Shown here: in pieces, positions 19,404-28,067 of the stretch
Layout of the letters: each line of letters opens with the position of its first letter
Position numbering within the stretch: position 1 is the first letter of the stretch
Source of the DNA: an uncultured Chroococcidiopsis sp.
GTDB lineage: Bacteria; Cyanobacteriota; Cyanobacteriia; Cyanobacteriales; Chroococcidiopsidaceae
Reading direction: 5' to 3'
Assembly (NCBI GenBank): GCA_964248365.1
Contig: CAXTYC010000008.1
Span: 1 to 64,000, forward strand
Length of the DNA: 64,000 bases
Made by a program: the position numbers and the translations under genes
Notes under the pieces: model-generated
Told to the model about the DNA's origin: nothing
Databases searched by the model: none
The model's input: only the letters and a program-made list of their open reading frames with translations

Positions 19404-19634
19404 GATTTAAAATTAATCCGGCTGCTTTATCAATTTTGTCACTTGATGCGCGCATCAAGTGGCTCATAGTTGATTAGAACATAGCTCTTGTCCCAATTTC
19501 TGTAGCGCATATACTTTAGCTCGATCATCTATATGTGTATATCACTTATTGGGTGGATTTGCACAGAAAACAAATTTTATATATTTTAAGATTACTTGGG
19601 CTGTTATTTATTTAATAATATATTTGATAGATAC

Positions 19635-20477
19635 ATGAAAATCCATCACTTTGATAATGCTCAGCAATATTATGAACGGGTAAAATACTATTTGCTCCAA
19701 CATGAAGCTGATCATAGTTTAATACTAGGAATTATTAATACTCTACTTCGCTCTCCTGAGCATTTTACCCAACAACCCTATTTAGTGGCTGTCGAAGATG
19801 AGACAATATTAGCTGTTGCACTCAGAACGCCACCTGGTAAGCTTATTTTATCAAGGGCTGTAAATACAGAGGCGATAAGAGCGATCGCGCAACACCTTTA
19901 TTCACACTCACAACCTTTACCAGGTGTAATTGCACCAGCAACAGTTGCCAAAACTTTTGCCTCTTTGTGGCAAGCATTAACAAGTCAATCCTATAAAATA
20001 GGAATGCAAGAGCGAATTTATCAACTTGAAACTGTACAGCCAATCCCAAAAGCAAGCGGTTATTTGCGACGTGCAAAGGAATGCGATCGCTTCCTTCTAA
20101 TCGATTGGTGCAAGGCATTTATTAGAGAAGCGATCGGTGATAATGCAGTTAAAAATGATGAAGATCGCCTTGTAGATCGTCATTTAAGTGAAGGTTCTCT
20201 TTATCTGTGGCAAGATAACATCCCAGTGTCGATGGCGGGTTTTAGTGGAGCAACACCAAATGGAATTCGGATTAATTTGGTATACACCCCACCTCTGTAT
20301 CGGAAAAAAGGCTATGCTACATCGTGCGTTGCTGCGTTGAGTCAAACCTTACTTGATGCGAGACGTAAATATTGCTTTTTGTTCACAGATTTAGCCAATC
20401 CCACATCAAATCATATCTACCAAACTATTGGCTATCAGCCTGTATGTGATATGAACAATTATTGGTTTGAAGGCTAA
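19635..20477 (+). CDS. GNAT acetyltransferase
   Basis: VYTPPLYRKKGYA, LFTDLANPTSNHIYQTIGY. Confidence 0.88.
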   Translation: MKIHHFDNAQQYYERVKYYLLQHEADHSLILGIINTLLRSPEHFTQQPYLVAVEDETILAVALRTPPGKLILSRAVNTEAIRAIAQHLYSHSQPLPGVIAPATVAKTFASLWQALTSQSYKIGMQERIYQLETVQPIPKASGYLRRAKECDRFLLIDWCKAFIREAIGDNAVKNDEDRLVDRHLSEGSLYLWQDNIPVSMAGFSGATPNGIRINLVYTPPLYRKKGYATSCVAALSQTLLDARRKYCFLFTDLANPTSNHIYQTIGYQPVCDMNNYWFEG

Positions 20478-20493
20478 CTGGGGCAATCTACTG

Positions 20494-20931
20494 TCATCGA
20501 CAATTACTATTGCCCCTGATCGCTCTGTTGGCTGCGCCGACACCAGCGCCAATTATTGCTCCCCTAGCAGTGTTCCCTGTGATCGCACCGCCTACGGCTC
20601 CGATAGCACCACCCGTTAAAGCTCCACGACCTACATTACCTGAACGACTTGTTGCACTATCAGCCGCACCAACACCAGCGCCAACAATTGCTCCCTTGCC
20701 AGCATTCCCACTAAGTGCGCCGCCAATGGCTCCAATAGCAGCACCTGTCGCAGTTTCACGAACTATGTTAGGACGACGACGAGATTCTGCTCTACAGTCG
20801 TGTACTTCTTTACGTTGCTGAGCCAAAATATACTTTCTATGTGAATAAGACGGTTGTGTCAATCCTATGTTAGGACTAGCTACTACAACGCTTACTACAG
20901 TGCTTACTATTGTTAAAACAATCTTTTTCAT
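20494..20931 (-). CDS. Secreted/membrane glycine-zipper protein
   Basis: Signal peptide plus duplicated GAAIGAIGG...GAGVGAA. Confidence 0.75.
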   Translation of the reverse strand: MKKIVLTIVSTVVSVVVASPNIGLTQPSYSHRKYILAQQRKEVHDCRAESRRRPNIVRETATGAAIGAIGGALSGNAGKGAIVGAGVGAADSATSRSGNVGRGALTGGAIGAVGGAITGNTARGAIIGAGVGAANRAIRGNSNCR

Positions 20932-21188
20932 AATTGCCTTCGAGTTTCCACTGCCAAATACCGTTGTCTATATAAATAAAAATTTTGCCCCTTTTTCATC
21001 CTCTTTTAGGTAGATAAAAGTGTAAAATATTACAACAAAACTACAACCATTTTCAAATGAGTCGGTTTTATTGAATATTCTCCTCATCCCCTCGTTACCA
21101 AGCGATCGCTGGGTAACGAGTAAAAAGAGGCAAGGAGCGAGGTTTACTTAAATTTTTTGTTGGGGGGCATGGGTGGCATACGTTTACT

Positions 21189-22397
21189 TTACACAAATTG
21201 ATGAATAAATTCATAGATCAAATCTACTCTTCCTTTGCGTAAAACGGCTGGATCTAGTCTTTGGGTCGTGTTGCAAGTCATCAACACAACCAATTTTTGC
21301 TCTGCTTGAATACCAGCCTCGTCAATTACACTTTGGTATAAAGTTCCATCTAACAAACTGAGAATATGCTCAGTTTTAGTATTGTTTTGAGCAACGTGGG
21401 TAGAGCGATCGCAAGCCAAATTATCAGCTTCATTGATAATAATACAAATCCGCTCCAAATAACTTGGTGGGACAAAATTTTCTACAGCATCATGGTCTAG
21501 GATAAAAATCACATATCCCAAAGGTACAAGAATTTCTTTTGCTACTGCTTGCGTCCATGCAGTTTTACCTGTACCTGGCTTACCATGTACTAGCACAGCT
21601 AACTGATTTTGAGCCAGAATTGCTTGCTGTACTGTGTCAGTAAAGCATTGAATATCCGCAGTAAAGGTTTTAATCGGAAACTGACTATGAACCTTTCCCA
21701 CACGACTTTGATAACCACTTAGCATCACTGCTAAGTTATAAGTTGCTTTGTTAACTATTGATCCTAGTTCTTTGCCAATCAGCGTATATCTTCGCTGGTT
21801 TAAGCTAGCATTATTGATTTGTAACCAAATCTCATATCTTGACCAATAAGCTAAAACCGTACCGATATTTTCAATGCGTTTCCAATCAACAAATCGGTCT
21901 ACAGGATAATAAAAATATCGCTCTCCAAAGCACTGAGTAATAGTATCTGGACAACCTAATATATCCAGAACTTTGAGAACAGTAATTTCCTGTAAACGAT
22001 TCAGAACATATTCAATTGGAATACTGTCACGGCTAACAGTTTGAGTAATGGGTGTTTCCGTACTCAAAATGTCTTTGTATTGATGATCTGGTGCTGGTGG
22101 TATGGGAGTAATATAATCCCAAAACTCATCTATATCAGAACGAGTGTAATCAGAAAAAATGTTCAATATATTTGCCCACCAGCTATAATCTCGACGAGTG
22201 AGGGCATCAGCAAGATCGCTAGCTAAGTCTACAGCTTTTTGAGTAAGCTGTTTTGGATCGCTTTGTATAAGTTGACAGAGATATTTCCAGTCAAGATCTC
22301 GGTGCAATGGTTGCCAACCCGATCCTAATAAATCTTGATCTCTACGCTCACGGTATTGAGGATGACCCTGATAATTATTAAAATGTCTAATTCCCAT
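21189..22397 (-). CDS. AAA+ family ATPase with unknown N-terminal domain
   Basis: GKPGTGKT Walker A, IIINEAD Walker B variant, TCN...LDPAVLRKGRVD second region of homology. Confidence 0.85.
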   Translation of the reverse strand: MGIRHFNNYQGHPQYRERRDQDLLGSGWQPLHRDLDWKYLCQLIQSDPKQLTQKAVDLASDLADALTRRDYSWWANILNIFSDYTRSDIDEFWDYITPIPPAPDHQYKDILSTETPITQTVSRDSIPIEYVLNRLQEITVLKVLDILGCPDTITQCFGERYFYYPVDRFVDWKRIENIGTVLAYWSRYEIWLQINNASLNQRRYTLIGKELGSIVNKATYNLAVMLSGYQSRVGKVHSQFPIKTFTADIQCFTDTVQQAILAQNQLAVLVHGKPGTGKTAWTQAVAKEILVPLGYVIFILDHDAVENFVPPSYLERICIIINEADNLACDRSTHVAQNNTKTEHILSLLDGTLYQSVIDEAGIQAEQKLVVLMTCNTTQRLDPAVLRKGRVDLIYEFIHQFV

Positions 22398-22423
22398 AAT
22401 TTTAATGTGGTTGTTGAAATGTA

Positions 22424-23410
22424 TTAATGTAGTTCAATTGGGTCTTTACGCAACAAATATCTATCGCTAATAAGTTTCATACAAACCCGCCCAATTTCAG
22501 GATGTGTTCTCTCCACAGTAGGCTGTATAATTACACCTTCCATCATGCACTTTGGGTCTAGTACACTATTACCATTATTGAATTGAGATACTGCTTCCCA
22601 ACTGTAAGAACCAACGTAGAGTATAGGCACAGGAGGTAAAGCAAATTCCTCACAAAACGCCACGAACCCATCGTGATTCAGAAATCTACCGTTGCTTTTA
22701 ACAGCAAATAAAGCAATGTCAATACCGTTACTCAAGCCATATTTGATGTCTTGAACACCGTATATTTCGCCAAATACTTGAGTGTTTATTGGTAGTTTAT
22801 GTAAAGCATTATTTTCGTTATAAGCTCGAACATAAACTAGGTTTTTATTCGTCGCATTATTCTTCCAAAAGTAATTGTGACTACCTATATGGACACCATC
22901 GTCATCTACCATAACGGTGAAATTGGTTCCGTGTATTTTCTCGGTTACGACTACTTTTTCTCCTACTTCTAAAACATCTCGATAACGTTTGAGATGTTCT
23001 GGACTAGGAAATTTGTACTGTCCAATTGGAGATTCTACATCCCCACTCATATTGTGAGGTATAGGATACTCGTATTTTTTAACTCCAAAATATTCAGTAT
23101 AGTCATCTCCTATATTTCCCTGAAATCCTTCACCAACAGGAATCAGTAAACCTTCAGAAAATATTCCCCTTAGTTTAGCAGCCCGTAATTTTTTCGAGTA
23201 ATAAGGACGAATGCCAAATTTATCGAGATATTCATCTGGAATAACGCTATCAATGGGAAAGTAAAAAGCAATATCGCCTGGTGCAAAATTACCTTTAGCC
23301 GTAACTACTTGATATTCCATGCCTTCAATCGTGGCAATATCCAAACGGTCAGCATTGGGATGAGAATTAACACTACTAATTTTGACAAATTCTACTTTAA
23401 AAATGCTCAT
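22424..23410 (-). CDS. ATP-dependent RNA ligase, Rnl2/DRB0094-like, with N-terminal tRNA-binding OB-like domain
   Basis: HPNADRL..SEGL OB-fold motif; nucleotidyltransferase motifs EKIHGTN, FGEIYG, EGVII, MKLIS. Confidence 0.9.
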   Translation of the reverse strand: MSIFKVEFVKISSVNSHPNADRLDIATIEGMEYQVVTAKGNFAPGDIAFYFPIDSVIPDEYLDKFGIRPYYSKKLRAAKLRGIFSEGLLIPVGEGFQGNIGDDYTEYFGVKKYEYPIPHNMSGDVESPIGQYKFPSPEHLKRYRDVLEVGEKVVVTEKIHGTNFTVMVDDDGVHIGSHNYFWKNNATNKNLVYVRAYNENNALHKLPINTQVFGEIYGVQDIKYGLSNGIDIALFAVKSNGRFLNHDGFVAFCEEFALPPVPILYVGSYSWEAVSQFNNGNSVLDPKCMMEGVIIQPTVERTHPEIGRVCMKLISDRYLLRKDPIELH

Positions 23411-23528
23411 AATTATCCTAAAAATTCGTTTTCAATAACTGTAAACCTCTACTTACCAAGCTGCGGCTGGAAACTAGGAAAAGGCTGTTGCGGGAAATAA
23501 AAAAATTTGTTTTGAGCCAAACAGTTAA

Positions 23529-23951
23529 TTATTTGAGAGGTTTCAAATCAGGCTCTATCCAACAAATACGAGCTTGCCAAGTCATTAGTAAATCGCGGCT
23601 GTAATATTCGAGTGGAAGACGTGAATTTTTATAACTATTAATCAGTCCATTAGTAAGAAGTACAATATTATTATTCCCAGCGTTAGCCGATAAATAATCA
23701 ATAATAATCTGTACCCAAAATAGTGTTATAGTTTCGTGATAGCCAGTGTCTTTTGTAGTTTTGATACCGTTAGCAGCATTGTATTTTTGGATGCGATCGC
23801 GCAAACAATTTATTGCCTCATGCTGGGAATGAGTGAGATACCACAACGCAACAGTCTGGTGTGCAGAATGACTCCATTCAGATCTTGGTAGCGTACAATC
23901 TTCAAATGCTCTTACAATATTTTTGATTTCATCTAATGACTTGTATGTCAT
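23529..23951 (-). CDS. Conserved hypothetical protein
   Basis: 140-aa ORF (W.H.AH...GYHETIT...W.EPDL) co-oriented between tRNA array and RNA ligase. Confidence 0.7.
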   Translation of the reverse strand: MTYKSLDEIKNIVRAFEDCTLPRSEWSHSAHQTVALWYLTHSQHEAINCLRDRIQKYNAANGIKTTKDTGYHETITLFWVQIIIDYLSANAGNNNIVLLTNGLINSYKNSRLPLEYYSRDLLMTWQARICWIEPDLKPLK

Positions 23952-24010
23952 GAAGTAGAACTATAAGAAATATTTGAATAAAAAGCGATCGCGCCTTCTA
24001 TAGAATGAAA

Positions 24011-24083
24011 TGGGTGGTAGAGGAGTCGAACCTCTCTAGTGTCGGTTAAAAGCCGACTGCACAAGCCGCTATGCCAACCACCC
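24011..24083 (-). tRNA. trnK: tRNA-Lys(UUU), apparently intact
   Basis: GGGTGGT/ACCACCC acceptor, GTCGG-CT-TTT-AA-CCGAC anticodon arm, AGAGG-TTCGACT-CCTCT T arm. Confidence 0.92.
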
Positions 24084-24092
24084 ATATATAAA

Positions 24093-24161
24093 CCCCTCTA
24101 GATGCAGTTGAACCCCGCACTCGAATTTAGAACATTCAACGCCAGTTCCCCTGGTAGAGGG
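24093..24161 (-). pseudogene. Degenerate tRNA-Arg(UCU)
   Basis: CCCTCTA/TAGAGGG acceptor, TGAAT-GT-TCT-AA-ATTCG arm; T stem disrupted. Confidence 0.65.
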
Positions 24162-24162
24162 T

Positions 24163-24240
24163 AATCCACAAAGGGAGGTAGGGCAACTCCTAAAACACAG
24201 TTATCAGCTGTGTGCGTCACTATTTCCGCCTCCAGTGGAT
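24163..24240 (-). pseudogene. Degenerate tRNA-Ile(GAU)
   Basis: CACAG-CT-GAT-AA-CTGTG arm, ATCCAC/GTGGAT acceptor; no intact TTC loop. Confidence 0.65.
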
Positions 24241-24242
24241 AG

Positions 24243-24325
24243 AGTAAGATGGAGGACTCGAACCCCTACAGTTTCCTGTACCCTAGATTTCAAATCTAGT
24301 TGCCGACCATTTAGCGGCATCTTCC
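24243..24325 (-). tRNA. trnS: tRNA-Ser(UGA), class II, one acceptor mismatch
   Basis: CTAGA-TT-TGA-AA-TCTAG arm, long variable arm TACAG-GAAA-CTGTA, GGTTCGAGTCC. Confidence 0.82.
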
Positions 24326-24329
24326 TTAA

Positions 24330-24407
24330 GGGTGTCGGAAGGAGGCTTGAACTCCCTAATTACTTGTTCCACAAACAAGCGTCTCGACCACTTCGACTTC
24401 AGACACC
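24330..24407 (-). tRNA. trnH: tRNA-His(GUG), one acceptor mismatch
   Basis: CTTGT-TT-GTG-GA-ACAAG arm, GGGAG-TTCAAGC-CTCCT T arm, GGTGTC/GACACC ends. Confidence 0.85.
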
Positions 24408-24412
24408 ATCAG

Positions 24413-24471
24413 TGGATACTGGTGGGGGTTGAACCCGCATCTTTCTACTTGCAAGGTAGAAGCATTATCAA
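24413..24471 (-). pseudogene. 5'-truncated tRNA-Ala(UGC)
   Basis: TCTAC-CT-TGC-AA-GTAGA arm and GCGGG-TTCAACC T arm present; 5' acceptor strand absent. Confidence 0.75.
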
Positions 24472-24549
24472 TGGTGGCGGGGGTGAGAGTTGCACTCACT
24501 GATTTTGAGGGTATGAACCTGACAAGCCACTCTTGCTTTATCCTTTGCG
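24472..24549 (-). pseudogene. Degenerate tRNA-Met(CAU) with encoded CCA
   Basis: AGG-TT-CAT-AC-CCT arm, GTGAG-TGCAACT-CTCAC T arm, 3' CCCCGCCACCA; 5' acceptor strand mutated. Confidence 0.7.
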
Positions 24550-24560
24550 TTGTCACCAAA

Positions 24561-24636
24561 TGCCCCTGACTGGATTTGAAGGTCGTAACCTCTGCGTTTT
24601 TGATAGAAAGATGTCTTTTCATTGCACTATAAAGGT
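24561..24636 (-). pseudogene. Highly degenerate tRNA remnant (identity uncertain, possibly Phe)
   Basis: TTCAAATCCAGTCAGGGGCA 3' end and tRNA-length spacing; stems largely broken. Confidence 0.45.
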
Positions 24637-24669
24637 ACAATTTGAGGGTGAAATTTAATTGGAAAAAAT

Positions 24670-25521
24670 TTTTACCTCAGCTTTTTTCTTAGCCCAGTAT
24701 CCTCTTGGCGGCTTCTCAATTCCATATGCTTTACACCATTTTTCAATTGCCTTGTCGCTAACTCCAAAATCTTGTGCTATTTGAGTTGTTGGATTTGTCC
24801 AAACTAGCTGTTGCAATTCTTCTTTTGAAGGACGTTCAACTTTTCTGGCTGCTAATCTAGAGCATTTTCAAAGAACAATAAGCATCTTGCCATTGTGTAG
24901 TTAATGCTTTACCACAATATAAGCAGGTTTCCTGTTTAACTGATGTATTCAATTTGTCATTATTTTTAGATACAAGCTGCTGGATTTCTGGATGTGCATT
25001 TTGCCAGCGCTGATAGCTTTCTGGATTATCAAACACTAATACACTTACAGGTCGATTATGAACTTTATCTATATCATCTATATCAATTATTTGTTCAAAT
25101 TATTGAGATTTAAAACTTGACATCAAACTTTTACGAGATTTACCTGCATAGTTATCTGTTAGAGCATGACAGTTGAGATATAAGATTTGAATATTTTCCA
25201 GTCTATTATCAAATCTGTCACCATTAATGTGATGTAGCTCCAAAGGGATAGGACCATTAAACCAAGTATTTAAATGGCAAGATTCATATTCTGCTGCTTT
25301 AATTCCATCGCAAATTAGTTTTAACCTTAAAGCATGAGCGTTTATGCTCGACCCTTTATAGAGGTAGGTTATTGCTGGCTTGCGTTGGGAAGATTTTCGT
25401 CCTCGTCCACCTTGATTTCCCTTGTAAACAATACCTAGTTTTGCTAAATTATGAATTCAGAGTGGTGGGCTTACAGTGCAGCTGTCTACAAATGAAAGCT
25501 TTAGAACGATGTTCGCTAATC
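24670..25521 (-). pseudogene. HNH endonuclease pseudogene (HNH + Zn finger + HTH) inside tRNA array
   Basis: Manual translation: ELHHINGDRFDNRLENIQILYLNCH; CLYCGK; IAQDFGVSDKAIEKWCK..PPRGYW; frameshifts ~25450 and ~24865, stop at 25100-25102, no start. Confidence 0.85.
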
Positions 25522-25522
25522 C

Positions 25523-25553
25523 TCAGAAGTGTTGCCAATTACACCACAGGGCA
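25523..25553 (-). pseudogene. 5' fragment of a tRNA (probably Gln) fused to the HNH remnant
   Basis: TGCCCTG-TG-GTGT-AATTGGCA-ACAC-T-TCTGA, ends before the anticodon. Confidence 0.65.
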
Positions 25554-25561
25554 ATGAATAG

Positions 25562-25634
25562 CTGCCTCAATAGGATTCGAACCCGCAACATTTCCGCAGA
25601 CAACGGAACGCTCTAATCATTGAGCTACAACCTC
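25562..25634 (-). pseudogene. Chimeric tRNA-Asp(GUC) with non-cognate 3' end
   Basis: Good D arm and TTCCG-TT-GTC-TG-CGGAA arm, but after GGTTCGAATCC the sequence TATTGAGGCAG does not pair with the 5' strand GAGGTTG. Confidence 0.75.
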
Positions 25635-25667
25635 ATGAAATGGGTGTTTTATTTATGCCTTATTAAG

Positions 25668-25679
25668 TTTTCAAGGTTC
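25668..25679 (-). promoter_or_regulatory. boxA antitermination sequence upstream of tRNA array
   Basis: GAACCTTGAAAA matches the cyanobacterial rrn boxA, ~35 nt before the first tRNA. Confidence 0.7.
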
Positions 25680-25934
25680 AGAAAAACTACAAAAAAATAC
25701 TTCTTTTTTTACAAAAACAACCAATTTTGTAAGTAATATCGGTGAATATTACAAATAGCAACGTCCGTTTTTGTACTTGCAAATCGAAAATTTATCCTCC
25801 TTTTTGGCTTTACTTTTTGATTGTTTGGAAGTAGGTGCGCGTCTGTTTGAGCAGGAATTTATTAAATTCCCACGAGTCAATTATTTGTATGTAGAACATG
25901 AGTTTTGTGGATGAGAACGTTTTGTCTTTCGACT

Positions 25935-25973
25935 TACTACATTTATGTTACATAAGCACTACAGAACTGTCAA
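25935..25973 (-). promoter_or_regulatory. Sigma-70 promoter of tRNA array with overlapping putative TrcR operator
   Basis: TTGACA(25973-68)-17nt-TAACAT(25950-45); + strand TACTACA/TGTTACA/CACTACA at 25935/25946/25957. Confidence 0.75.
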
Positions 25974-26048
25974 GAGGGTGAGGAAAAAATTTTTCGCAGG
26001 CTTTGTGTATATAACTTCTGGGAATAATACAAGGTGTAACTTAGGTGT

Positions 26049-26233
26049 CTCAGATCTTGCAGCATTCTCAAGACGTATCAATAACCCGCTTTGAGAATTA
26101 ATTCTCAAAGCTAATAGTGGAAGTCTACTGAAGTAGACTATCGGGCAAACTCTAACCCATTTCAATGGGTTTTGGTTATTGGTTTGGGGTGAATTGATTC
26201 ACGCCGCAGTTGTTGCAACAGGTGCAAGATATC
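26049..26233. mobile_element. Multi-hairpin MITE/REP composite, copy 1 (AGATCTTGCA...TGCAAGAT ends)
   Basis: Inverted ends plus four internal palindromes; same layout at 54321-54494. Confidence 0.65.
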
Positions 26234-26369
26234 AAGTGTATGGAATTGAAATAAAACAGCGGCTCAACTACTAAAACTGCATACTAAAAAAGCGCTCGCC
26301 CAAAATCTAGCAAATAAAAAAAGATCCACCCAAAGGGCGCAAAAATAAAAATATGCGCCCCCTTATGTA

Positions 26370-26759
26370 TCAATCGCTCAAAACAGAAGCACCAATTTGC
26401 GCACAGTGCCACAACTTCACTAGCAAAAACTCAGTAGAGTAAGATAAAGCTGCAACAAATACACCCTCTGCACTCTCTGCTTCTGTTGCTATCCAAGTAC
26501 CTTTGAGAATAACCTCAACATACTCGGCATCACAGGTGCAAAGCTCAATTTCATCTGTTTCTTGCCGTCTAACCTCAGCTGTAAGTAAATTCAATTGGGG
26601 CAAATCAGCAGGTAACAAAAAGGCAGCTGTGCTAGGTTCGACGTAGATGCGATCGCTTACTCTTAGAGCAAAAATCACTCTTTGGGCTACCCACTCCTCC
26701 AAAGACTGAGCTAGAGATTCCAAGTAAAAGCCAGTTTCGATATAAGTCAATTTCAGCAT
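26370..26759 (-). CDS. alr0857-family protein
   Basis: MLKLTYIETGFYLE.L..SLEEWVAQRV..ALR N-terminus; follows HNH gene. Confidence 0.8.
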   Translation of the reverse strand: MLKLTYIETGFYLESLAQSLEEWVAQRVIFALRVSDRIYVEPSTAAFLLPADLPQLNLLTAEVRRQETDEIELCTCDAEYVEVILKGTWIATEAESAEGVFVAALSYSTEFLLVKLWHCAQIGASVLSD

Positions 26760-27295
26760 GAGCTTGGGAATCCTCCTATTGTTGGTAGGACCTCTCCCTT
26801 GCGCCAGAATTTTTCCGCAAAGGCAACAGTTGGATGTATTGGCGCTTTTGGCTTAGTACGTAGAGCCATACCAGCTTCTAGCAACGTGCGATCGCTTTTA
26901 TGCTGGTTACACCTTTCACACGCCGTCACCACGTTAGTCCAGGTGTGTTGACCACCCTTAGAAAGCGGGATGACGTGATCTAATGTCAGGCGTTTATTAC
27001 TACCGCAGTATTGACAAGTGTGGTGATCTCGTCGCAGCACTTCTCGCCGATTTACTGGGGGAATTTTCCAAATTCGCTCCCGACTGGTGAGTGTTAAACG
27101 GATGTAAGCTGGGACAGCAATGACTCTTCTGGGCGATCGCACCACATATCCAGTATCGTTGCCCAAGTCTAGTGCTTCAGCCTTACCTGCCACCAACAGC
27201 GCGATCGCTCGCCTGACGTTAACTCGGCTAACTGGCAAGTAATTGCGAGAAAACACTACTACAGATTGGTCTAACACCTGACGATCGCTTGTCAC
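26753..27295 (-). CDS. HNH endonuclease (McrA-like, alr0856-like)
   Basis: RREVLRRDHHTCQYCG, LTLDHVIPLSKGG..TWTNVVTACERCN..K; GTG at 27295 behind aaggag. Confidence 0.9.
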   Translation of the reverse strand: MTSDRQVLDQSVVVFSRNYLPVSRVNVRRAIALLVAGKAEALDLGNDTGYVVRSPRRVIAVPAYIRLTLTSRERIWKIPPVNRREVLRRDHHTCQYCGSNKRLTLDHVIPLSKGGQHTWTNVVTACERCNQHKSDRTLLEAGMALRTKPKAPIHPTVAFAEKFWRKGEVLPTIGGFPSSC

Positions 27296-27314
27296 CCCTT
27301 TACTCCTTGAAATA

Positions 27315-27352
27315 CAAAAAACCCCGCTTCTAGTCATTCCTGAAGCGGGGGG
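27315..27352 (-). terminator. Terminator-like hairpin just upstream of HNH gene (possible attenuator)
   Basis: ccccgcttc-loop-gaagcgggg followed by T-tract on minus strand. Confidence 0.65.
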
Positions 27353-27672
27353 CTGAAATTACCTACAGTCTTTTATTCCTATATTGGTACAGCATTATAC
27401 TTGTACCTCCCGCTTATTGTTTTTAGTCTCGGTGTGGCTAAATGCAGCCCACAAGGAGCGGCTATGCCCAAATCATAATTAATCTGTCCACGAAGCTCCC
27501 CATGAAAGCGATCGCCCAGCAATTTGAGCAAAAAGCCCTCTAAAAATAAAAACTCCACCGCCATATACACTGATTTCCAAGTGCCAAAACATTTGGCACA
27601 AACCAGCGGATTGGAGATGAAGTCTAGACGTTTCACAGAAAGTTGCACCTATGTGGCGAGAAATTTGAACAT

Positions 27673-27711
27673 TACTTTAAACATACTACACTTGTATTAC
27701 TAACCTGTCTA
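27673..27711 (-). promoter_or_regulatory. Divergent promoter region with putative TrcR operator
   Basis: TAGACA(27711-06)-17nt-TAGTAT(27688-83); + strand TACTTTA/TACTACA/TATTACT at 27673/27684/27695. Confidence 0.72.
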
Positions 27712-27731
27712 GATATTTAAGGAGAAAAACC

Positions 27732-28067
27732 ATGCATACAATTACTCGCACTTCAACCACAGATATGGAAGTAACCAGTATCCGTCTGGAGCGGGAACTA
27801 AAAGATAGACTCAAGGAATTGTCCGGCAACTCTGGATATCAAGCCTTGATCCGAGATATCCTGTGGAACTACGTACAGCAAAAATCTGGAGACTGGAAGC
27901 CACAATTTTCCCCTTCTGACATTCGTGCCAGTATTGCCGCCACAGCGCAGACAGAAGAACACTGTGTTCTCACAGGGCAATTAATCCGACCGCAAGAAGC
28001 CATGTTTTTAGGACTCACGACCAAGGGCGACTTAGTTCCCATTAGTATGGAGAGTTTGGCAGGATAA
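27732..28067 (+). CDS. trcR: Ribbon-helix-helix repressor, TrcR (All0854)-like
   Basis: VTSIRLERELKDRLKELSG..GYQALIRDILWNYV RHH; synteny with alr0856/alr0857-like genes and a downstream kinase. Confidence 0.75.
   Translation: MHTITRTSTTDMEVTSIRLERELKDRLKELSGNSGYQALIRDILWNYVQQKSGDWKPQFSPSDIRASIAATAQTEEHCVLTGQLIRPQEAMFLGLTTKGDLVPISMESLAG

Follow-up and report, generated by a model that had tools for sequence, protein, structure and literature searches.

TrcR-type promoters, a decayed tRNA array and an Rnl5-type RNA ligase as a probable TrcR target in an uncultured Chroococcidiopsis

The stretch analyzed here, the first 64,000 nucleotides of contig CAXTYC010000008.1 of an uncultured Chroococcidiopsis sp. 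(assembly GCA_964248365.1; hereafter the window), contains a locus in which a gene for a TrcR-like ribbon-helix-helix repressor on the plus strand faces a series of features that all lie on the minus strand: an HNH endonuclease gene, an alr0857-family open reading frame (ORF), the relics of a tRNA array, a conserved ORF (orf140), an RNA ligase gene and a gene for an AAA ATPase. We give a probability of about two in three to the reading that this is the home locus of TrcR, with a second promoter carrying TrcR-type boxes that acts as a cargo slot and here places orf140, the ligase and the ATPase under TrcR. The new element is the Rnl5-type ligase behind TrcR-type operators, which we present as a lead. 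Most other parts are known, as the trcR-HNH-alr0857 block, the boxes, the HNH genes before most arrays and the enrichment of RNA-processing genes have been published (PMC10272220, PMC8421152).

A literature search found no statement of trcR beside arrays or of an Rnl5 ligase as a TrcR target; the search did not cover Fig. 6 of PMC8421152, which may draw the locus, and the legend of Fig. 6A names strain CENA595, whose locus (L019) is our main comparison below. Neither trcR/all0854 nor alr0857 nor an Rnl5 ligase is mentioned in the text and searched supplement of PMC8421152.

Results and Discussion

TrcR and its two promoter regions

TrcR of Anabaena sp. PCC 7120 represses promoters that carry its boxes and declines under ribosome inhibitors, to which its regulon responds; deletion of trcR derepresses alr0856, alr0857, all0263, rtcB and trn, and DNA binding by the protein requires Leu44 (PMC10272220). 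The 111-aa ORF of the window is most likely trcR, based on the exact match of its operator to the published motif, the presence of Leu44 at the helix B position of its translation and the divergent HNH-alr0857 layout, and by analogy its product is expected to bind DNA. A Pfam search with this product gave no match, and NCBIfam-type profiles gave only a weak antitoxin-type match to residues 14-50 (E 0.03). The gene is present in a single copy in the genome, and matches to it were found in 35 of the 41 genomes in our sample of relatives. An earlier sequence-only reading had proposed that a TrcR-like gene diverges here from HNH and alr0857-like genes, and the ORFs, Pfam, NF045647 and the exact operator all agree with this. 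On the minus strand, a promoter-like site (27711-27683) is found at the trcR operator.

The closest described counterpart is trcR (all0854) with asr0855-alr0856-alr0857 of PCC 7120, which shares the divergent layout, the exact 18-nt operator, Leu44 and the HNH and alr0857 partners. The two loci differ in that the trn operon of PCC 7120 lies on a plasmid and all0263 elsewhere (PMC10272220), whereas in the window alr0857 is followed by a second TrcR-type promoter, the array relics, orf140, the Rnl5 ligase and the ATPase. No clear homolog of asr0855 was seen at the window locus. The window HNH is 68.6% identical to the HNH beside the plasmid trn operon of PCC 7120.

The second promoter, with its promoter-like site at 25973-25945, is the best such site of the region (Table 1). 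Its -35 element is a perfect consensus, its half-sites overlap the -10 element at 25950-25945, and the corresponding site of L019, the locus of Aliterella atlantica CENA595, can be aligned to it; the layout is that of the mapped trn promoter of PCC 7120. Between alr0857 and the first unit of the array lie 734 bp, with a strong hairpin after alr0857 and a second short stem with a T tail at 26339-26327, and the array has a promoter-like site of its own. All six named protein ORFs of the locus are intact in frame and in the order and orientation claimed earlier, according to the ORF list of the window. Only 58 bp separate tRNA-Lys from orf140, 118 bp orf140 from the ligase and 26 bp the ligase from the ATPase, and no separate box was found within 600 bp of any of these three genes (best match, 5-6 mismatches). 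The short gaps and the absence of boxes near the three genes fit read-through from upstream. The physical linkage of repressor and targets that had been expected earlier is supported, and the array, orf140, the ligase and the ATPase have a TrcR-type operator upstream.

Based on these features, we propose that TrcR would repress two promoter regions, the divergent one serving trcR and HNH-alr0857, and the second promoter, which would be a slot for interchangeable translational-stress cargo, occupied in other genomes by an L-type array, rtcB, kptA, the ATPase or the ligase. Impaired translation would lead to loss of TrcR, as has been shown in Anabaena and is presumed for the window strain, and a single transcript would then run across the tRNA relics (about 2 kb) before reaching orf140, the ligase and the ATPase. 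Its output would be one redundant tRNA-Lys(UUU) and three proteins. The second promoter probably still drives the three intact genes, including the ligase.

Table 1. Features of the trcR locus, with positions in the window
Feature	Position	Strand	Basis
trcR, ribbon-helix-helix repressor, 111 aa	27732-28067	+	ORF; Leu44; operator; divergent partners
TrcR autoregulatory operator over divergent -10 elements	27683-27701	.	Exact match to published 18-nt motif at 27683-27700
HNH endonuclease, alr0856/all8564 type, intact	26753-27337	-	PF14279 and PF01844
alr0857-family protein	26370-26759	-	NF045647, 172.5 bits (cut-off 75)
Terminator-like hairpin after alr0857	26310-26362	-	Fold of 26310-26372: -20.2 kcal/mol, z -4.09
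Second promoter, sigma70-type, with three TrcR-type half-sites at 11-bp spacing	25933-25973	-	10/12 consensus bases; best promoter-like site of region
Chimeric relic, 5' Asp(GUC) and 3' Asn(GUU)	25559-25635	-	L019 alignment scores 81 and 83 (shuffle maxima <39)
tRNA-Gln(UUG) 5' fragment	25523-25554	-	Deletion joins fragment to nuclease pseudogene
Broken HNH/zinc-finger/HTH gene inside array, ~860 bp	24658-25522	-	Start lost, frameshifts, stops
Leu(UAG) relic, heavily decayed	24560-24637	-	Score 61.5 (shuffle maximum 45); no cloverleaf
Met(CAU) relic	24472-24549	-	Relaxed ARAGORN; L019 alignment
Ala(UGC) relic, 5' end deleted	24414-24472	-	L019 alignment
His(GUG), near-intact	24330-24407	-	One extra base, acceptor-stem mispair; Rfam 29.8 bits
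Ser(UGA), near-intact	24242-24325	-	Single acceptor-stem mispair
Ile(GAU)-like relic	24172-24238	-	Counterpart in L019 and PCC 7120 likewise uncalled by ARAGORN
Arg-like relic	24089-24168	-	Best library match Arg(ACG), 62.5 (shuffle maximum 38)
tRNA-Lys(UUU), sole intact-looking unit	24010-24084	-	ARAGORN default; Rfam 54.7 bits; cloverleaf, z -3.4
orf140, conserved all-helical protein, no named family	23529-23951	-	337 homologs among 341 candidates
Rnl5-type RNA ligase, N-terminal OB and nucleotidyltransferase domains	22424-23410	-	PF21189 and PF09414
Single-domain AAA ATPase, Bcs1/YjoB-like	21189-22397	-	Pfam, structure model, 69-row alignment

The ligase is of the Rnl5 type

By its sequence the ligase is of the Rnl5 type (DraRnl/NgrRnl), with a score about 10 bits under the cut-off of TIGR02306, the DRB0094 family (141.1 versus 151.15 bits), while covering positions 7-341 of the 341 in that profile. 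PF21189 matches residues 9-92, which align to the N domain of NgrRnl, and all nine of the PDB sequence matches are to Naegleria NgrRnl. We take Lys158 to be motif I and residues 312-315 of the 328 to be motif V, labels that follow the alignment with NgrRnl; the chain ends 13 residues past motif V and is without a C-terminal appendage. The earlier assignment to Rnl2 is rejected, as the signature C-terminal domain of that type is missing and TIGR02307 scores 13.5 bits against a cut-off of 197. DraRnl (DR_B0094) and NgrRnl are alike in having an N-terminal OB domain, nucleotidyltransferase motifs and a chain that ends soon after motif V (PMC4408790, PMC5397189). The window ligase is similar to DraRnl over its full length, yet the two are far apart in sequence (26.6% identity over 92% of the length), and while DraRnl sits in a radiation-induced two-gene operon, the window ligase sits behind a translational-stress operator.

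To place the ligase in context we surveyed its neighborhoods in 80 of the 83 relatives in the GTDB collection, over up to 10 kb on each side, with many contigs being short. Within this range the ATPase was found at 28 loci, trcR together with HNH and alr0857 at 11, orf140 at nine and at least five tRNAs at one. A box lies between alr0857 and the ligase at all 11 trcR-linked loci, nine of which have no tRNA there. For the box counts we used the 76 loci with at least 1.5 kb of upstream sequence (four were dropped). Within 4 kb of the ligase, boxes were found upstream in the sense orientation at 31 loci, antisense at four and downstream at two. With the autoregulatory box of trcR excluded, the sense upstream boxes are distributed by genus label as 24 of 37 non-Nostoc loci and seven of 39 Nostoc loci, many of the Nostoc negatives sharing one neighborhood. 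From these sequence comparisons we consider the Rnl5 ligase a probable TrcR target. The boxes before the ligase in many genera also suggest translational stress as the setting in which to look at a ligase knockout in a tractable cyanobacterium.

Cuts in anticodons usually leave cyclic-phosphate and 5'-OH ends. The Rnl5 enzymes characterized so far join 3'-OH/5'-phosphate nicks in duplexes and act poorly on single strands, and they require RNA on the 3'-OH side only (PMC4408790, PMC5397189). This specificity is a poor fit to anticodon repair, so that the earlier suggestion that the ligase repairs anticodon-nicked tRNA appears doubtful. More likely, from the biochemistry of the family, the ligase would seal 3'-OH/5'-phosphate nicks in base-paired RNA or RNA-patched DNA, complementing the two RtcB enzymes of the window genome, which would take cyclic-phosphate/5'-OH breaks such as anticodon cuts. 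Both rtcB genes lie outside the locus. The ligase is not a replacement for RtcB, which is found in 36 of the 41 genomes. No full-length Pnkp was found in the window genome, the best match scoring 46 bits against a cut-off of 750. This partial match is a small P-loop kinase that overlaps another gene, presumably one for a tRNA-His guanylyltransferase, in the region C2:376753-377980 (minus strand).

The in vivo substrates of Rnl5 enzymes have been described as unknown, and deletion of DraRnl makes Deinococcus radiation-sensitive in a setting where rRNA is not broken (PMC4408790, PMC5397189). This, the requirement for RNA on one side of the nick only and the constant presence of HNH genes as neighbors are what would be expected if the ligase were under TrcR control but served DNA repair, sealing RNA-patched gaps such as those left by cuts of the co-induced HNH, with no role in RNA quality control. 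We regard this as unlikely, since the recurring neighbors of the ligase are related to RNA or translation (kptA, EF-Ts-like, L7/L12 and NUDIX genes) and the TrcR regulon responds to ribosome inhibitors.

A short EF-Ts-like gene of 201 aa (7/80 loci) and an L7/L12 copy (2/80) occur just upstream of the ligase at L014, L054, L056, L063, L071, L075, L079 and L082, several of them directly behind a box. A GNAT acetyltransferase, encoded in the window at 19596-20477 on the plus strand, has a homolog within 10 kb of the ligase at 13 of the 80 loci; these homologs often share the strand of the ATPase and lie a few kb beyond it, while that of the window is on the opposite strand.

How firmly the block is tied to TrcR

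Several results weigh against control of the block by TrcR. The boxes in the window have drifted, with two mismatches per half-site pair compared to none in L019. The region has 22 promoter-like sites where 19.4 are expected by chance, and in the genome as a whole the 11-bp box spacing is not enriched, either at one mismatch or fewer (five sites, versus one to five at other spacings) or at two mismatches (39 sites, versus 40-58). As box and promoter matches are not rare alone, only their position and conservation carry weight. Among the relatives, 45 of the 76 ligase loci have no box within 4 kb, and the loci are related, so the counts overstate their independence. Boxes are also infrequent before the ATPase, being found within 1.4 kb upstream in only six of 42 loci and, at up to two mismatches, within 300 bp in none of 18 stand-alone copies. 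The half-site pair pattern used in these counts was chosen after seeing the data, in place of the published strict motif, which we rejected as a test of the regulon for being too insensitive (6/76 upstream regions, versus 18/605 controls). Neither rtcB nor kptA of the window genome has an upstream box at up to two mismatches.

These points raise the alternative that the block has become uncoupled from TrcR, the promoter and array being in decay and the three genes read from cryptic promoters in the AT-rich pseudogene or barely at all. The mismatched boxes are consistent with this, as are a -10 element that differs from that of L019, a distance from promoter to first tRNA that is some 250 bases longer than in L019, and several weak promoter-like sites in 25233-25086. 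We nevertheless consider uncoupling quite improbable, based on the facts that all three frames are intact, that the ligase and ATPase are 76-82% identical to those of relatives with the same arrangement, that the same drifted box sequence lies directly before the ligase at locus L084 and that the -35 element of the second promoter is a perfect consensus.

Part of the AT-rich stretch between the promoter and the first relic (25690-25900), which is single-copy and without a counterpart in L019, matches the leaders of three other arrays. A contig from an environmental run that would link the promoter region straight to the ligase (23413-25875) was set aside, as one side of the join has only 31 bases, which is too weak as evidence. 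Among the 23 sequencing runs listed, none was of RNA.

The tRNA array is in an advanced state of decay

As a reference for scoring the array units we used 321 tRNAs, drawn from ten trcR-linked loci and four plasmid loci, with shuffled controls; the decay of the units was read by alignment to the intact array of 20 tRNAs in L019. Ten units scored above the shuffles, in the order Asp/Asn, Gln, Leu, Met, Ala, His, Ser, Ile-like, Arg-like and Lys, showing that their origin from an array is real and not due to chance. The default setting of ARAGORN nevertheless calls a single tRNA in the window, Lys(UUU), and relaxed settings add Ser, His and Met (Met at ps80 alone); two units, Lys and His, pass the Rfam gathering threshold. 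With the exception of Lys(UUU), whose anticodon stem shows compensatory changes relative to L019, the units are fused, truncated or mispaired. The Asp-Asn chimera (Rfam 28.9 bits, under gathering) joins the 5' part of one tRNA to the 3' part of another, which implies loss of the genes between them.

The sequence-only reading had described a tRNA array running with short gaps into orf140, the ligase and the ATPase. The order and the gaps hold; an intact array does not, with one of ten units looking intact, and the run is also broken by a frameshifted HNH/zinc-finger/HTH gene that the reading had not recorded. Over 845 alignment columns this pseudogene shares 68% nucleotide identity with a gene of about 290 aa that occupies the corresponding array position in genome G152 and is intact there. 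Group I introns proposed by ARAGORN (-i) were rejected as artifacts; in G152 the embedded HNH stands as a gene of its own. Undamaged states of several units were seen in contigs from four environmental runs, which represent relatives of mixed likeness and not the window strain: the Ser pairing base is present in all four, and in three of four the His extra base is missing and the Ala 5' end is intact.

The relics resemble the trn operon of PCC 7120 and other L-arrays in their promoter layout, upstream HNH and order (Asp...Asn, Gln...Met...Ala, His, Ile-like), whereas they differ in condition, with 23 of the 26 operon tRNAs of PCC 7120 being charged and one of the ten window units looking intact (PMC8421152). 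According to the same study, most cyanobacterial L-operons are preceded by an HNH and their surroundings are rich in RNA-processing genes, the RNA ligases near L-arrays being RtcB and Hen1-Pnkp.

It had been proposed that the locus is a working operon of spare tRNAs with a dedicated ligase/ATPase module for the repair of nicked tRNAs. L019, with its 20 intact tRNAs in the same gene order as the window, would suit such a function, as would the intact Lys(UUU), the His and Ser units that are close to intact, and the cleavage of operonic tRNAs under stress in Anabaena. The proposal is hard to credit given that nine of the ten units fail default ARAGORN and look damaged, and that the surviving Lys(UUU) duplicates a housekeeping copy on contig C23. 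L019 is also the only one of the 80 ligase loci with an intact array nearby and the ATPase is near the ligase at 28, which does not support a fixed module, and the requirement of Rnl5 enzymes for 3'-OH/5'-phosphate duplex nicks, the lack of a full-length Pnkp match and the presence of two RtcB genes all speak against such repair. The window genome is accordingly a poor model for spare tRNAs, while offering a clear snapshot of array decay with the downstream protein genes intact.

The ATPase and orf140

The sequence-only reading had called the 140-aa ORF and the N-domain of the AAA ATPase uncharacterized. The orf140 product belongs to no named family; the ATPase is better charted than stated, being the probable ortholog of a published TrcR target, all0263. 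Homologs of the Nostocaceae type are 400 aa long, 66% identical (for the pair compared) and located beside a response regulator or threonine dehydratase. The gene all0263 (1203 nt, labeled BCS1-like) likewise lies next to a response regulator (456 nt) and a threonine dehydratase, is up 24-fold without TrcR and has a promoter that is shifted by TrcR (PMC10272220). This ortholog assignment was made from length and gene order rather than from a sequence alignment.

Alignment of 69 rows showed that Lys278, Thr374 and Asn376 of the ATPase are invariant and Arg387 and Arg390 nearly so, consistent with a Walker A motif, a sensor-1 Asn and an arginine finger. In structure comparisons the model aligned with Bcs1 (E 2e-13) and with YjoB (229 residues, Z 12.3), the likeness extending past the ATPase core; the closest described proteins are all0263 and the Bcs1/YjoB-type ATPases (PMC10272220, PMC9565160). 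Unlike the Bcs1/YjoB type, the window ATPase has no C-terminal helical lid, its chain ending after the last strand as in most homologs, and it has Asn in place of the Walker B Asp, as do 61 of the 69 rows. Matches of the N-terminal region in the ESM Atlas were all below 0.9, and that to DUF5925 at 0.80 is no more than a lead.

In 12 of 42 loci (one fragment was dropped) the ATPase comes after kptA, and in six after the ligase; it thus shows no fixed pairing with the ligase. We expect that it would most likely be a co-induced protein chaperone or remodeler and not a ligase subunit. An internal stop codon interrupts the ATPase in two relatives, L134 and L147, so that cargo downstream can decay too.

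The product of orf140 would be a co-regulated passenger, possibly metal-binding; an alignment of 65 sequences shows invariant His28 and His31 and a YHE motif. Its structure model (pLDDT 87) gave no Foldseek match at E <=0.001 and a best Z of 5.3 among 48,161 chains, which does not in itself show a new fold, and the ESM Atlas returned unnamed clusters only. Similarity to an Rnl1-type ligase domain (Z 4.8 and 3.9) was rejected as being within noise. At eight loci across the phylum (one partial was dropped) the gene that follows orf140 encodes another unknown protein in five cases, the ATPase in two and the ligase in none.

A conserved protein of 480 aa, for which Pfam and NCBIfam gave no match, is found repeatedly near TrcR-type boxes, beside orf140, arrays or the ligase (L020:8232-9674; also L012, L046, L079, L082, L103, L168, L212-L216 and L224). 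It is a candidate for an unstudied member of the TrcR regulon.

tRNA arrays linked to trcR

Among 34 relatives, the region behind trcR holds a full array in five and one to four tRNAs in seven (two of them cut by contig ends); the ATPase is found there on the same strand in eight, rtcB in six and the ligase in three. An even sample of 35 further trcR loci from the phylum added five full arrays and no ligase. The synteny survey suggested earlier hence finds full arrays behind trcR-HNH-alr0857 in 10 of 69 loci, from five families, with remnants in seven; the linkage of trcR to arrays is not peculiar to this genome. The slot behind trcR-HNH-alr0857 is occupied by rtcB at L109, L110, L111, L116, L117 and L118, which represent two genera. 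Plasmid arrays, including that of PCC 7120, have an HNH 58-71% identical to that of the window, and no trcR was found in the four plasmid array regions viewed.

Across the ten linked arrays there is a modest correlation between tRNA similarity and the similarity of TrcR, HNH and Alr0857 (Mantel r 0.43, p 0.004), the signal being partly driven by close pairs and one pair departing from it. This hints at, without proving, co-descent of trcR and its linked arrays, contrary to the published emphasis on horizontal transfer as the main route by which L-arrays spread (PMC8421152), a view on which the repeated linkage bears. A broader proposal, which we offer tentatively and would not yet rely on, is that the trcR locus is a long-standing chromosomal home of L-arrays, inherited largely vertically and repeatedly lost, that plasmid operons such as that of PCC 7120 are escaped copies of HNH and array, and that RNA repair is the true task of the Rnl5 ligase in the TrcR response, where it would close nicks in rRNA or tRNA stems once translational stress has struck. 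If the latter is true, it would provide the first RNA substrate in a cell for the Rnl5 family.

The 150-kb contig that contains the window is one of 102 in the draft genome, and a chromosomal location is likely. Gene content and HIP1 density (about one per kb) mark the organism as a cyanobacterium. That the block is a recently acquired mobile or anti-phage island, beside trcR by chance, is highly improbable: its GC content (36-38% for orf140, ligase and ATPase, versus 43% for the genome), the lack of a close ligase ortholog in all six same-genus genomes and an ATPase more similar to copies in two other genera (78-82%) than to those of its own genus (58-63%) are set against HIP1 sites inside the block, arrays that fill the same slot in five families, no PADLOC family for the ligase, orf140 or alr0857 with weak generic matches for the ATPase and HNH, and no full-length relative of the ATPase among 50,697 phage records. 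A reading as a defense system was rejected on the PADLOC and phage results.

Additional observations

A CUA-anticodon tRNA (called "Pyl" by ARAGORN) is found in two arrays, about 5029 bp from trcR at L127 and at L223:6163-6234; these units are possibly amber-reading or mutated. A CRISPR repeat predicted at 26148-26185 (CRISPR-DR46, 27.7 bits versus 50) was rejected, being part of a dispersed palindromic repeat (26050-26240) with about 18 further matches in the genome. Just downstream of the ATPase, a glycine-zipper ORF (20494-20931, minus strand) is preceded at 114 bp by a TrcR-type tandem box with one mismatch (21027-21045, minus strand), and may be another target or a chance occurrence.

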